From IMG/VR virus record IMGVR_UViG_3300029892_000002: a stretch of 20,564 bases of DNA; one strand, 5' to 3'. The notes beneath the pieces were generated by a model that made no database searches, was not told the origin of the DNA, and saw nothing but the letters and a program-made list of their open reading frames with translations. Within the stretch, counting starts at the first letter, position 1. The number at the start of each line of letters is the position of its first letter. Positions 1 to 13,331 of the stretch are shown here, one piece after another. This stretch comes from a virus. A program made the position numbers and the translations under genes.

Positions 1-171
1 GACACCAGGCTCAGGGTGGAAGTTGGTCATGGTTCTGAGGGCTTCATCCCTGATGTTCTGAGCGGCGTTCAGATCTCTGTCATGGGTCTGGCCGCAGTGC
101 GGGCAGGACCACTCGCGCTCGGATAGCTTGAGTTTACGGTCCAGGCGCTGCTTGGTATGGTTGCAGATATG
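1..171 (-). pseudogene. tnpB: C-terminal remnant of TnpB (zinc finger plus RuvC-III)
   Basis: Minus-strand translation [46 protein letters not shown] contains the L-S-x-R-x-W-x-C-P-x-C-G and H-D-R-D-x-N-A-A-x-N-I signatures of the TnpB C-terminus. The N-terminal part of the protein is absent. Confidence 0.88.
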
Positions 172-220
172 GAGTCGCTTATATCCACGCCCTGAAGGAC
201 GTGGTTTTACGCTCATTGTG
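1..220 (-). mobile_element. Internally deleted (non-autonomous) IS200/IS605-family element, IS609-like; runs off the left edge
   Basis: Subterminal hairpin CCACGTCC-TTCA-GGGCGTGG (minus strand, 204-185) in the context CTTATATCCACGCCCTGAAGGACGTGGTTTTACGC, typical of IS605-group left ends. TTAT lies immediately outside it (224-221), the target tetranucleotide known for IS609. tnpB 3' codons follow directly. Bases 1-120 are about 60% GC (73/120), against an AT-rich phage background. Confidence 0.8.
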
Positions 221-390
221 ATAACTCTCAGGTGCAATACATTCGCCAAATACTTCTCCATTGCTCTCTGGCTGATCAATTCCAGAAAGCAACAGGCAAG
301 TATTTCACTCACTTCCTGTAGTGTCATCCAGGCGATCTTCACAAAGGCCGAATTAACACGATTCGTTGTGGTCTTAACATAGAATACCAC
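1..390 (-). CDS. Possible chimeric ORF (phage-derived N-terminus, IS left end, TnpB C-terminus); partial
   Basis: A stop-free frame of 130 codons runs from GTG 390 (in-frame ATGs at 327, 261, 216) to the window edge. It is missing from the ORF track because it has no stop in the window. Confidence 0.35.
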
Positions 391-451
391 ACCTTTTTAT
401 AGGGTTCGACGATTGCCTTTTCTAGTAAAAGCAGGGGTCGCCTATCTCACA

Positions 452-723
452 TAAAATCAGCCGAAGCTGTCGTCAACTATGAGAAGATCAACGATACTTT
501 AATCAAGGTAGTATAACCACCTCATTAGAGGTTACTTGTTTCCTCTAGCTCACTTTATATAACTCTATAAGTGTTTGTCTTTTGCCAAGATAACAAAAGC
601 TACAGTTCCTTATAGCTGAGCAGGTTTAGACTTAACTTAAGTCTCTCATATTACCTACCGGTTAGTTGGACCGGATTATGTCTACATGAGACATGCGGTA
701 AAGATAACTATTGCTAGTTGTCT
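452..723 (-). ncRNA. Candidate structured non-coding RNA (about 270 nt)
   Basis: No ORF in the track. It lies directly downstream of the promoter-like motif at 721-760 and contains at least seven local stems, a GCAA tetraloop (714-711), a cUUCGg hairpin (469-458) followed by AUUUU, and a 7-bp long-range helix (478-484/644-650). Confidence 0.45.
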
Positions 724-760
724 CACTTAATATATATGTGATCATATTTTTTTCAGATAA
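721..760 (-). promoter_or_regulatory. Putative phage (early-type) promoter, copy 1
   Basis: 32/40 ungapped identity to 13292-13331. Minus-strand core CACATATATATTAAGTGAGA resembles the TATATTAC early-promoter element of phiKZ. Intergenic, just downstream of the polymerase stop codon. Confidence 0.65.
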
Positions 761-804: not shown

Positions 805-2925
805 TCATGTATAATTAGATACCAAACTACCAGATTTAACAAAGAATCCAAGTGACTCAAGAATGATGCGATATACCAATGTAAGGTCTATGGCTATTTT
901 CTCAATATCCATGATGGATCTGATTTCCTGAGGAACACCATGTGATTGAACATACTCGGATGGTAGGTATATGGTATTCAGATCATTCTTTTTCTTTCTT
1001 ACTAACCACTCAACCATGGCTTCTCTCATCTTTACATTAGGAAGAGAATCCACCCATTCTTTCAGAACTGTTCTGTTCCTGAGTTTGGTTGGTATGATGA
1101 GAGTTCCAAATGGTGGTGGGTTAATAGGACCATATGCATGTTGATATACTTCTAACCAGAGTTTGTAGTGCTGATATGGTGATTCGTCTTCTGGTAGTGA
1201 GTATGCGCTAGCATCTTTGATCTTGGATTGTTTTAGGTATTTCGACTCACCAGACCTAAGCGATTCCATGACACTGCGCTCAATGTCTTGAACTCGCTTG
1301 ATATATTTCAGTAACTCTAGCGGTTGGTTCTGACTTACTGTTGTAAGTATCTCAGTAATCATCGCATGAGCTCCTTTGATTAAGTCAGGAGGAGCTGCTG
1401 AGTTCTTGAGATGAACACCTTTGATCTCAAGACTGGGATTAGCAAAGACGTTACCTTCTTGCACCACAGTCCATGCTGCATAGTGTTTAGCAACGTTAGT
1501 TGGCATGTGAACTGTCCAGAGAAACTCATTCTTCATAGCTAGATCATGAAGCATTTCTCTTGGAACATTGATGTTAGCTGAAAGAATAGCTAATAGATGA
1601 GATACTGCTTGTGTTGCTATGAAAGCCACAGCACCACAGACGGCAAAGGTTTCTTCACTGAAATTGATCTTACCAAAATACCATAACATCCAGTCATCGG
1701 TAGAGAAACAGGTAGAATCCGTATCGGATAATACCACCGACCTACGCATCATGGAACGGATGAACGCATGACTGGCTGGAACCATCTTGGTTAGGAAAAA
1801 CGCTTTGATGAATAAGTCATAGTCCTTGAGAACTTGTGCTATGTTCTCAGATGTAAGTACCAGCATACAGACTGTCTCATAAGGCATCTTGGCATAATCT
1901 TTACCTTTACCTCTGAGATCATTATAACCAATTTGATGAGCGTAGTTTAAGATTTGTTCATCGATGGACCAGATCTTATCTAGAGCATTTTCAACATGCC
2001 CGGTGCACTTCTTACTGAGTCTATTAATGAACTCCAACATGAAGTCATTATTAAGTACACGTATGCGATATAGGTCACCTATGTAGCAGAAGGCTGCTCT
2101 TTCTATATCGTCCATCTTTTCCACATAAGCTTGGATGCGCTCCATAGCTAGTGGGTTCTGGAAATAGAACCTAGTGGAGTATTCTATACAATCCATAACT
2201 TCCTGTACTGTAGGAATATGGAGTTTATAATGCTCTATGGCTTGTTTGATTTCATCTCTATCTATCTCTGTGCAATAACAATTGAGATTATAGAGAACGA
2301 TATCCTCGTTATAGTAATGACGATTACCCATCACTACACGTTCATTGGAGGCGTTGCCAAAAGAACTCACAGATCTAATCGTAGAGGTAAGTGAACTATG
2401 AGCAGTTGGGTTATAAAATACCGAACCCTTACTACCAAATGCTCCAGACATACTGTTGTTATAGTTCTTCATGTTCTTCTGTTCATTGTCCTTCATGATG
2501 AACAGATCATTATTACCGGCTGCTTTAGCTTTGAATCCTTCTTTTTTAGCTTGGCTTCTGCGTTTCTTATTACCTTCTACGAATCCAACTAGCTTAGATG
2601 GTATCTGGGTTGGGTTCTTATAGCAAGTAAAGGTTGGAGCCAGGATAAGATCTCTCTTAACCAAGGTATCTATATATCTAGATAGAGAGATATGATCAAC
2701 TAATCTATCGCCATTATCACCACGATGAAAGAACTTCACAACTGGGTTTTTGATACCAGATTGCTTACTAGTGATCACATGCCTTACGAATTCTTTACAT
2801 TGGTCGATGGGATCACCGGACATCTTACTGATATACATAGCAGCCTGTTCAAGATAATGATTGATAGGCTGTATGTCTCTTTGGTAGTATTCTTTTTCCC
2901 TAAGAAATAGCTGTTGCTCTGACAT
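805..2925 (-). CDS. phiKZ-type family B DNA polymerase, catalytic (palm/thumb) subunit, gp050-like
   Basis: 706 aa. Motif B variant KNYNNSMSG and motif C VVLSDTDS, followed by K-H-Y-A and LEIKGVHLK. No exonuclease motifs, consistent with the split polymerase of phiKZ-like phages. Syntenic with phuZ. Confidence 0.9.
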   Translation of the reverse strand: MSEQQLFLREKEYYQRDIQPINHYLEQAAMYISKMSGDPIDQCKEFVRHVITSKQSGIKNPVVKFFHRGDNGDRLVDHISLSRYIDTLVKRDLILAPTFTCYKNPTQIPSKLVGFVEGNKKRRSQAKKEGFKAKAAGNNDLFIMKDNEQKNMKNYNNSMSGAFGSKGSVFYNPTAHSSLTSTIRSVSSFGNASNERVVMGNRHYYNEDIVLYNLNCYCTEIDRDEIKQAIEHYKLHIPTVQEVMDCIEYSTRFYFQNPLAMERIQAYVEKMDDIERAAFCYIGDLYRIRVLNNDFMLEFINRLSKKCTGHVENALDKIWSIDEQILNYAHQIGYNDLRGKGKDYAKMPYETVCMLVLTSENIAQVLKDYDLFIKAFFLTKMVPASHAFIRSMMRRSVVLSDTDSTCFSTDDWMLWYFGKINFSEETFAVCGAVAFIATQAVSHLLAILSANINVPREMLHDLAMKNEFLWTVHMPTNVAKHYAAWTVVQEGNVFANPSLEIKGVHLKNSAAPPDLIKGAHAMITEILTTVSQNQPLELLKYIKRVQDIERSVMESLRSGESKYLKQSKIKDASAYSLPEDESPYQHYKLWLEVYQHAYGPINPPPFGTLIIPTKLRNRTVLKEWVDSLPNVKMREAMVEWLVRKKKNDLNTIYLPSEYVQSHGVPQEIRSIMDIEKIAIDLTLVYRIILESLGFFVKSGSLVSNYT

Positions 2926-7671: not shown

Positions 7672-8637
7672 TTAAAGCACAAGACCTTCTTTAGTAGTTT
7701 GAATGGAGTTATCGACGATGGAACGATGAACGAACGCAGAGCGCGTGTCATCGGCTTCACGCAGACGAGCATCCAAACGGTGAGCGATCTCAGCAAAAGC
7801 ATTAGCCACCAAGACCATGTGAATCGGCATGTTAAAGGTAGTGTTCTGCTTAACAACACTAGGCAAAAATCCAACTGCCTGATATTCGATCGGATGTTTG
7901 ATATCAGCAGACTTATCCTCATCGGTAAGAGTAACTACACCAATGATAGCCTCGTCCTTATTGAGAGTGATTTCATGACCGTCAAAGAAATCAAGCTTAA
8001 CCATGGACGGTTTATAAGACGTGACCTTGGGATAGTTCAAGAAATGTTGAAGGTCAGCAGTATCAAGCTCGCGATGCTTACCAGAGAAGAACAGCGAGGT
8101 CATGATGACATGCATGCGAACTTGCTGATCAACACTACCACGAGGGTTACTTGCTGAGTTTTCGAAATACGTAACAGCGATCGGCACACCAGTTGAATCA
8201 CTGATAGCTGCATAAGACTTGAGAGTCTTAAGAGTGTTTTCGATCTCGATACGAGAACCAGTCGAACCGATCAGAGTAACGGTAAGAGGACGACCCTTCT
8301 TAACCAACTCACTAACAAGAACGGGTGCGATCACAGAACCAGATCCACCAGAAGCAGAGTGAATAACGTTGATGATATCAGGGGTCCCGATCTTTTGTAC
8401 GAGTTCCTTAGCCCGCTCAGAAATTTGTTCGTAGTTGACAGCACGGAGTTTACCAGAACCATCCATGCCATCAAAGAGATAAACCTTACTTGGATCGAGT
8501 TTATCTGTAAGATTGCTACGAGAAGTATCAACAGTGAAGACATCGATTTCTGCGTAACCGGCTTCACCAGTGTTGACAAAATGCTGGGCCAGGTTGATGC
8601 CTGCTCCACCACAGCCAACTACACACATAGTGCTCAT
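7672..8637 (-). CDS. phuZ: PhuZ phage tubulin
   Basis: 321 aa. T1 loop GCGGAGIN, VDTSRSN, DGSGK, tubulin signature SASGGSGSVIAP, T7 loop ELDTAD, and a PhuZ-like C-terminal tail ending EGLVL. Confidence 0.95.
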   Translation of the reverse strand: MSTMCVVGCGGAGINLAQHFVNTGEAGYAEIDVFTVDTSRSNLTDKLDPSKVYLFDGMDGSGKLRAVNYEQISERAKELVQKIGTPDIINVIHSASGGSGSVIAPVLVSELVKKGRPLTVTLIGSTGSRIEIENTLKTLKSYAAISDSTGVPIAVTYFENSASNPRGSVDQQVRMHVIMTSLFFSGKHRELDTADLQHFLNYPKVTSYKPSMVKLDFFDGHEITLNKDEAIIGVVTLTDEDKSADIKHPIEYQAVGFLPSVVKQNTTFNMPIHMVLVANAFAEIAHRLDARLREADDTRSAFVHRSIVDNSIQTTKEGLVL

Positions 8638-9132: not shown

Positions 9133-9338
9133 TGGATTTCCTATTCCCAAGTTGAAGAAAAGGTTGTTGCTATAGAGAACTCCTTTTAAGGAAGGTTTGG
9201 ATATTCTTGATACCACCAGCGTTTCCTGTTAGGGAAGCGTTGGTGATATCTCCACAGAATGCCAATCGGTAAGTTTTTTCTAAATACCAATTAGCCAGAT
9301 ACTACACGTATTAAATATATACCCATATAGGTTTCTAT

Positions 9339-9376
9339 TAAGCAAGAAAAAACATCTAATCATATATAGCGAATGA
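9339..9376 (+). promoter_or_regulatory. Degenerate third copy of the promoter-like motif
   Basis: CATATATA-N5-TGA (9361-9376) has the same spacing as copies 1 and 2, and an upstream A-tract as in copy 1. Confidence 0.4.
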
Positions 9377-9445
9377 ACACTGCCGAAACCGCATGGTATA
9401 TGTACTAAAGGCTATACTCGATCTTTTATTGCTATTGGTTAGGAT

Positions 9446-9476
9446 ACTTAAGATAGTCTTCTTGACTATCTTAAGT
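9446..9476. repeat. 13-bp perfect inverted repeat
   Basis: ACTTAAGATAGTC-TTCTT-GACTATCTTAAGT, imperfectly extendable outward. Confidence 0.9.
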
Positions 9477-9522
9477 TCATCCTTAGCCTATTAGGTATAT
9501 ATTAACTCGCTCATTCCTAGGT

Positions 9523-9558
9523 TAGACTATATGTTAGCTCAAACTAACATATAGTCTA
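9523..9558. repeat. 15-bp perfect inverted repeat
   Basis: TAGACTATATGTTAG-CTCAAA-CTAACATATAGTCTA. Confidence 0.9.
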
Positions 9559-9666
9559 TGACCATGGTTATGTACGACATATCATCATTGACATACCCGT
9601 GTAGGTAAAATATTTCCAAACCCTTATCATATTTTGGAACTAGTAGATTATCGAGCGCAGGAAGGA

Positions 9667-9697
9667 ACGGAGTCGAAGACGGAGTGGATGACGGAGT
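9667..9697 (+). repeat. ACGGAGT x3 with an exact 12-nt period
   Basis: Copies at 9667-9673, 9679-9685 and 9691-9697. Confidence 0.9.
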
Positions 9698-9871
9698 GAG
9701 CTAGCTTATCTTTATCTTTAGATCTAGCCAATGTTAAGCCTAATAGGAAGCCATGGATATGGTGCCTTGGCACCATGGTTATAATAATATGGTGTGTACG
9801 TCATTTCTATAAATACAATAATATCCGTGGTTATACAAGAAGAATAGCAGTAACCAGTACTACCAAATAGT

Positions 9872-9908
9872 CCATCGATGCCGGCTCTTGGTGAGCTAGC
9901 ATCGATGG
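9872..9908. repeat. Inverted repeat/hairpin upstream of the 9961 gene
   Basis: CCATCGATGC (9872-9881) / GCATCGATGG (9899-9908), with an inner GCTC/GAGC pair. Confidence 0.8.
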
Positions 9909-9960
9909 TTAAATACCTGAGTGTGTCGAGATCATCTGGACACTATAGATGGAGGCTAAC

Positions 9961-13104: not shown

Positions 13105-13291
13105 TTACATCTCCTTGTAGTTGATTTAATCTAACACGCTACTCGCCGTGTGTTATGGCGGCATTATTTTACTCCCGCTTGCCAGCGCTATCCGTCATCC
13201 GAGCTTTTGAAGTCCCTTAGCAAGGAATAATTCGAATCTCACCATAGCGTAAAGAACAAGATATTTCCTCCTAAACAAATCGAGCTGGCTA

Positions 13292-13331
13292 TCTCAAGTA
13301 GTATATATGTGACCATGGTTATGTCAGATAA
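13292..13331 (-). promoter_or_regulatory. Putative phage (early-type) promoter, copy 2
   Basis: 32/40 identity to 721-760. Minus-strand core CACATATATACTACTTGAGA (TATACTAC, compared with phiKZ early TATATTAC). Confidence 0.68.

Follow-up and report, generated by a model that had tools for sequence, protein, structure and literature searches.

Does the gene-free DNA beside the polymerase gene of this phage encode a structured RNA and, if so, how far does that RNA extend? The window, by which we mean the whole 20,564-nt stretch of viral DNA that was analyzed, is on the evidence of its sequence from a phiKZ-like (chimallivirus-type) jumbo phage. It carries a tubulin gene (7672-8637) and a divergent family B DNA polymerase of 706 aa (805-2925, minus strand; PF20286, E = 1.5e-211), the upstream neighbor of the candidate RNA; in relatives of this phage, chimallin is encoded a few kilobases downstream of the polymerase. 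An earlier note on the letters of this DNA had proposed a structured noncoding RNA of about 270 nt at 452-723, read from the minus strand and preceded by its own phage promoter.

Two Logan contigs repeat the window sequence exactly down to position 197, so the window is not an assembly artefact. Contigs L156 to L158 lie across the assembly break on the DUF7484 side (samples SRR5011275, SRR5011273, and SRR13164376), and both halves of the cassette described below were found in SRR5011275 and SRR5011273, joining the polymerase to DUF7484 in the same order as in relatives. Comparisons were made with a sibling phage (L006/L155, JGI 3300044603) and with two relatives, G001 and G002. Positions without a prefix refer to the window.

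An accessory cassette between the polymerase and DUF7484

The candidate RNA lies in a cassette of 1.0 kb, not counting an insertion sequence (IS), that is situated between the polymerase and DUF7484 and has no counterpart in the sibling. The cassette consists, in order, of an early promoter motif, 594 ORF-free nucleotides (727-221 plus the 87 nt of L157:31-117), a small frameshifted ORF, and an intrinsic terminator, which is strong (L157:378-418). The sibling is 98.6% identical over the polymerase side, and there the terminator and DUF7484 follow directly after the polymerase; a 70-bp terminator segment occupies the place of the cassette. The left boundary is as follows:

805-815, minus strand: left cassette junction; identity to the sibling ends at 816, and the last three polymerase residues are altered

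Homology to the sibling resumes at L157:436. The DUF7484 side has just 92% identity with the sibling, as would fit a recombinational exchange, and no repeat was found at the cassette junctions. Promoter-bearing accessory DNA swapped between close relatives is also seen in the PeSL cassettes of T4-type phages (PMC2839356); the present cassette differs in that its cargo is mostly noncoding, the sibling's terminator has been replaced, and the junctions are without a repeat.

The earlier note had suggested collecting the syntenic region from related phages to look for covariation, but at the related loci the region is absent. Neither in six relatives (56-67% identity in the polymerase) nor at about 70 loci of greater distance is there such a gap here, and a gap comparable in size right after the polymerase gene was seen at none of about 80 loci, two of them mis-parsed and three without a full gene (largest gap, 245 nt). 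As the candidate RNA is not syntenic in relatives, the proposed covariation test is without material; on the available genomes the region is strain-specific, known from one uncultured phage genome. Three relatives carry different, unrelated genes at the polymerase-DUF7484 junction (L001:5185-7302, L002:5169-5654, and L009:3701-3946), which marks this junction as an insertion hot spot in the clade.

The noncoding nature of the region held up. There is no ORF in 452-723, nor is that stretch explained by a translated short ORF; across 507 nt no frame is open (7 to 15 stops per frame), and codon scores of the ORF-free region range from -0.08 to 0.04, versus about 0.1-0.3 in five of six control genes. 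The trailing ORF begins further on, where L157 has a Shine-Dalgarno sequence (106-110) and, after the 87 nt that follow the IS, a 50-codon ORF (118-270), with another frame open to 374. L157:118-374 is, from its sequence, a probable 85-aa gene in which the frame shifts by one base near codon 45; homology searches returned no homolog for either part.

An early promoter on the minus strand

Upstream of the candidate RNA is an AT-rich, clade-specific motif that is common to promoters ahead of G001 and G002 genes:

728-760, minus strand: early promoter of the phage clade; TCTGA, about 14 nt, then the CATATATA box

The promoter motif copy that had been noticed at the start of the stretch is thus real, since the motif recurs in the window (at 13311) and in relatives (five copies in G001, several in G002), mostly at 45-100 nt from motif to start codon. 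The minus strand is upheld as the RNA strand. Of 13 such promoters in relatives, 10 have an ORF start within 100 nt; the promoter of the candidate RNA is separated from the first credible gene by 594 nt. Two apparent long leaders in G002 turned out to be coding. A 5' UTR in phiKZ usually measures 31-40 nt (PMC8244752), and the virion RNA polymerase of that phage reads AT-rich early promoters of this kind (PMC10914365, PMC13282480). By analogy, the candidate RNA would be transcribed early by the virion RNA polymerase, with a start that the promoter sequence would place near 727-722. The window holds a second early promoter copy (13105-13331), where a folded leader of about 190 nt precedes a 115-aa gene without a cluster partner, and the first transcribed bases of that cassette resemble 727-715.

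An IS605 remnant within the ORF-free region

The ORF-free region is interrupted at TTAT (224-221) by an insertion with the hallmarks of IS200/IS605 elements, namely the target tetranucleotide, two end hairpins, TCAA, and tnpB sequence; among the cleavage motifs of IS605, TTAT and TCAA occur most often (PMC9956272). Its two parts are as follows:

1-220, minus strand: left part of an IS200/IS605 element, internally deleted; left-end hairpin at 204-185, tnpB tail from 180
L157:1-30: IS605 right end; hairpin, then TCAA at 27-30

The tnpB tail is a zinc finger (PF07282, E = 4.6e-10), the left end and tnpB have matches in plasmids and phages, and L157:1-43 has a weak HgcC match in Rfam. The first TTAT (814-811) was rejected as a candidate left end because neither an end hairpin nor a matching guide follows that TTAT. 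The remnant as assembled contains no intact tnpA or tnpB, with no more than about 10 nt between the left-end hairpin and the start of the tnpB tail; as its sequence stands, it is non-autonomous, with tnpA and most of tnpB deleted. One short IS presumably joins the window to L157, its middle being unassembled.

Likeness to IS200/IS605 tnpB elements with omega RNA is confined to 1-220 and L157:1-30, making the element an insertion into the candidate RNA and not a part of it. As the RNA element can carry an IS, and a 98.6% identical sibling does without it, the element is dispensable. The remnant is positioned for transcription from the early promoter. If an omega RNA is still made, its guide would be the L157 flank, which together with TTAT matches the IS-free allele (the omega region is mostly unassembled), and with this guide an intact TnpB encoded at another place could cleave the IS-free copies that co-infecting phages carry. 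The sibling has a different, full-length tnpB element inserted in its chimallin leader (L006:10234-11424; L155:8012-9202), which the phage of the window lacks, as L156 aligns across that site.

Folding of the flagged 272 nt

All 11 stems listed for 452-723, and the final UUCG hairpin, are present in the sequence. The stems 598-604/611-617 and 579-587/591-599 have G-U pairs solely on the minus strand, and 702-710/715-723 pairs slightly better on the plus strand (with one G-U there), both as claimed. The folding of the stretch as a whole is unremarkable for this phage, with z-scores of -2.77 on the minus strand and -2.97 on the plus strand, hence no strand preference at 272 nt; 12 of 39 windows of this length elsewhere in the phage (31%) reach -2.77 or better on their best strand. 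The proposed architecture is not borne out: the stems within 702-723, 628-644, and 579-599 are the only likely ones in the ensemble (p 0.6-0.95). The stems 678-694, 656-660/696-700, and 519-532, the closing helices 548-552/617-621 and 478-484/644-650, and the suggested pseudoknot pairing 506-510/652-656 all have p ≤0.06 in every context tested, and the models leave 478-484/644-650 a place solely as a pairing that could survive as a loop-loop pseudoknot.

The boundary suggested at 452 fared no better, and on these models it is probably wrong. The UUCG hairpin there has p 0.57 within the 272 nt but 0.04-0.09 in contexts that extend downstream, only four U follow it, and the strongest local folding lies further downstream, at 160-390 (z -4 to -5, minus strand). 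The size of about 270 nt has likewise to be given up, since the ORF-free folded unit is about 594 nt long and runs on to 221 and beyond the IS605 remnant; for 727-221 alone, z is -3.9 on the minus strand versus -2.7 on the plus strand.

Predicted fold of the IS-free allele

The IS-free allele was reconstructed in silico by joining window 727-221 to L157:31-117, giving 594 nt. It has a z-score of -5.5 on the minus (promoter) strand versus -2.9 on the plus strand. Scores against dinucleotide shuffles are negative almost throughout the phage, with a mean of -2.9 for 594-nt windows; this AT-rich genome folds well everywhere, so that single-sequence z-scores overstate structure. One of 46 background strands reaches -5.5 or lower, which puts the IS-free fold in the top few percent but not off the scale. 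Pairs with p >0.8 number 96 on the minus strand, including 11 G-U, versus 63 on the plus strand, including 3 G-U. The predicted fold has five domains inside a closing helix, and its elements are the following:

702-726, minus strand: 5' hairpin with a GCAA tetraloop; p 0.83-0.96 in all contexts
663-696, minus strand: 5' strand of an end-closing rod; 696-685 pairs with L157:105-116, and 678-671 and 668-663 can pair with L157:84-92 and L157:65-70
619-659, minus strand: domain 659-653/625-619 enclosing hairpin 644-628; p 0.82 and 0.95
447-615, minus strand: central domains, 615-609/571-565 with hairpin 599-579, and 562-552/457-447; p 0.6-0.95
399-445, minus strand: stem-loop 445-437/410-399 with inner hairpin 433-414; p 0.85-0.96
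248-305, minus strand: long hairpin of 8 + 14 bp (22 bp); p 0.99, with G-U pairs and a local z of -4 to -5 on the minus strand
221-226, minus strand: 5' half of the 5' arm, including TTAT, in a 12-bp stem that spans the IS site; completed by L157:31-36 and L157:52-63

The helix 562-552/457-447 encloses hairpins 546-527 and 523-505. The loop at 649-645 is complementary to the loop at 483-479, the sole 5-bp Watson-Crick match among unpaired segments; the match is not significant alone, and in the model it is a possible pseudoknot. Within the end-closing rod, p is 0.94 and 0.87 for the outer 8 bp and 0.3-0.54 for the inner parts, and the energy of the duplex (-20.9 kcal/mol) is equalled by 0.26% of 2652 genomic 35-mers, the segments having been picked after inspection. 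The helix 696-685/L157:105-116 covers the Shine-Dalgarno sequence (AGGAG) of the trailing ORF and stops 2 nt before the start codon; the Shine-Dalgarno sequence is also paired locally when the 5' part is absent.

The stem across the IS site and the 5'-3' closing helix appear only after the join, as neither half alone shows them. In the IS-free allele, the 12-bp stem has p 0.98, and the chance of its six extra contiguous pairs is 0.25%; its local synergy is reached by 26 of 1000 shuffles, while over the full molecule the synergy of the two halves is borderline, being reached by 3 of 60 shuffles. At 9216-9949 there is another ORF-free stretch, about 730 nt in length, which has long hairpins with perfect stems and, at 9361 on the plus strand, a motif resembling a promoter; it reaches z of about -6 in a 272-nt window and has no sequence similarity to the candidate RNA.

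Searches for homologs and known RNA families

No homolog of the candidate RNA was found by blastn in 50,697 phages or in plasmids, nor in RaK2 and 50 contigs of related jumbo phages, many of them fragments, which were searched by blastn and with two covariance models, each built from a single sequence; such models are weak, though these do recover the window itself. An exact-pattern search of viral and genome contigs gave few matches, all by chance, and a 38-nt match to T5-like phages was discarded because it is antisense within a coding gene. With no homolog in the databases searched, there is no covariation support. A covariance-model scan of the window (E up to 10), with L157 scanned separately, gave no match to Rfam families including ROOL, GOLLD, OLE, HEARO, and RAGATH, in keeping with the novelty that the earlier note had proposed.

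The view that this is not a tRNA, tmRNA, group I intron, or HEARO element is likewise borne out by Rfam, ARAGORN, and core-motif searches, all negative. ARAGORN found no tRNA or tmRNA in the window or the IS-free cassette, and a tag motif is absent. In the candidate RNA no catalytic-RNA core motif was found: the group I intron Q, R, and S motifs are absent as exact motifs, and the RNA lies between genes, not inside one; group II domain 5 is absent, and the 5' end has merely a one-mismatch likeness to GUGYG; RNase P RNA CR-I and CR-V and the SRP RNA helix 8 motif are absent; and the exact hammerhead core CUGANGA is absent, with one-mismatch cores only, one of them before hairpin 523-505 without a following GAAA. 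Gene-free gaps with group I intron motifs occur in G002 (C1 11584-11858, 35504-35945, 55434-55793, and 86681-87004). Membership in the RaK2/121Q-type large RNA was rejected, as an HMM built from eight copies had no match and none of its four conserved motifs is present even when one substitution is allowed; there is a faint likeness at 627-599. Two single-sequence models of the candidate RNA also miss six RaK2/121Q-type members, and that RNA is multicopy, whereas the candidate was seen as a single copy.

Among known systems, ROOL and GOLLD are alike in being phage-encoded, several hundred nucleotides long, multidomain, and ORF-free. These large ornate RNAs form an RNA-only multimeric cage by cryo-EM (bioRxiv 10.1101/2024.12.08.627333, PMC12286853). 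Unlike them, the candidate has no covariance-model match and is known from one genome. They are often near tRNA islands, but neither the window nor the cassette has a tRNA; their pseudoknots have covariation, while the candidate has a predicted multidomain fold with one possible loop-loop helix and no homologs. The 5'-UTR-derived noncoding RNA candidates of phiKZ belong to the same phage group and likewise lie between a phage promoter and a gene (PMC10914365); those with stated sizes are about 90-200 nt, and the candidates are genus-conserved (PMC10914365), whereas the candidate RNA is about 590 nt and strain-specific.

Interpretation

We tentatively favor, with a probability of about 0.42, an early stand-alone RNA that folds as one end-closed unit, leaves the trailing ORF silent, and acts by binding protein, the present copy being probably damaged. 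The flagged stretch would be the 5' half of a single noncoding RNA of about 560-590 nt at the head of a 1.0-kb accessory cassette, which recombination would have put in place of the 70-bp terminator segment. The virion RNA polymerase would transcribe this RNA during the first minutes of infection; the transcript would fold as one multibranch unit, closed by pairing between its two ends, and the closing helix would cover the ribosome-binding site of the trailing ORF, so that the transcript would be largely untranslated and stable. It may then act in trans as a decoy or scaffold in host takeover, by analogy with large ornate phage RNAs only, and its mode would be protein binding rather than catalysis or antisense pairing. 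The copy that this phage carries is probably damaged, since the IS605 remnant splits the 12-bp stem and the trailing ORF looks frameshifted.

The same damage can be read differently. The IS insertion and the frameshifted ORF suggest relaxed selection, conservation of the region was not found in our searches, and the folding might reflect the general foldability of the genome, given the background mean z of -2.9 and the 31% of 272-nt windows that match the original score; the locus would then be nonfunctional or decaying cassette DNA made up of the remains of small early genes and terminator-like hairpins. We regard this as somewhat unlikely, because remains of genes sit poorly with 7 to 15 stops in every frame over 507 nt and with codon scores below those of five of six control genes, the strand asymmetry and G-U bias favor the promoter strand, and a stem re-forms precisely across the IS site.

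The position of the closing helix, over AGGAG and ending 2 nt before the start codon, also raises the question of whether the region is a long cis-acting leader that controls the trailing ORF (L157:118-270, or about 85 aa with readthrough of the frameshift) by fold-back pairing. Fold-back inhibition is known from type I toxin mRNAs. One promoter and one terminator are common to the RNA and the ORF, and the second early cassette of the window likewise has a long folded leader (about 190 nt). However, 594 nt far exceeds the need of such control, Rfam gives no riboswitch or T-box match, the ribosome-binding site is paired locally too, and the ORF is without a homolog, all of which make a leader unlikely.

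A discrete RNA of about 270 nt ending at the UUCG hairpin near 452 is very unlikely. With p 0.57 in the 272-nt context, the hairpin could form cotranscriptionally, and phiKZ makes many 5'-UTR-derived RNAs through premature termination (PMC10914365), but the hairpin, with its 4-bp stem and four U, is weak as a terminator and is outcompeted in longer contexts, and the downstream part folds more strongly; a strong terminator lies at L157:378-418. A self-splicing intron remnant, a composite of the IStron type formed with the IS, or some other known ribozyme, as the group I intron motifs in a relative and the abutting tnpB element might suggest, is highly improbable, given the empty Rfam result, the absence of exact matches to the Q, R, and S motifs of group I introns, domain 5 of group II introns, and the hammerhead core, an IS whose own left end and TTAT target lie within the RNA and not at its start, and the lack of any gene interrupted by the RNA.

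The stand-alone, end-closed RNA is a plausible new large phage RNA outside the catalogued families, on one sequence. That it might represent a new class, of large, end-closed, multidomain RNAs exchanged among nucleus-forming jumbo phages as accessory early cassettes and made within minutes of the start of infection so as to bind a host protein, such as a defense factor, and neutralize it, is distinctly doubtful. The sibling without the RNA and the IS-split allele offer natural comparisons. Few small RNAs are documented for phiKZ-like phages; if a folded RNA of 0.6 kb is indeed gained and lost as an early cassette, these phages would treat large RNAs as accessory genes, and its early timing, if true, would point to host takeover or counter-defense.
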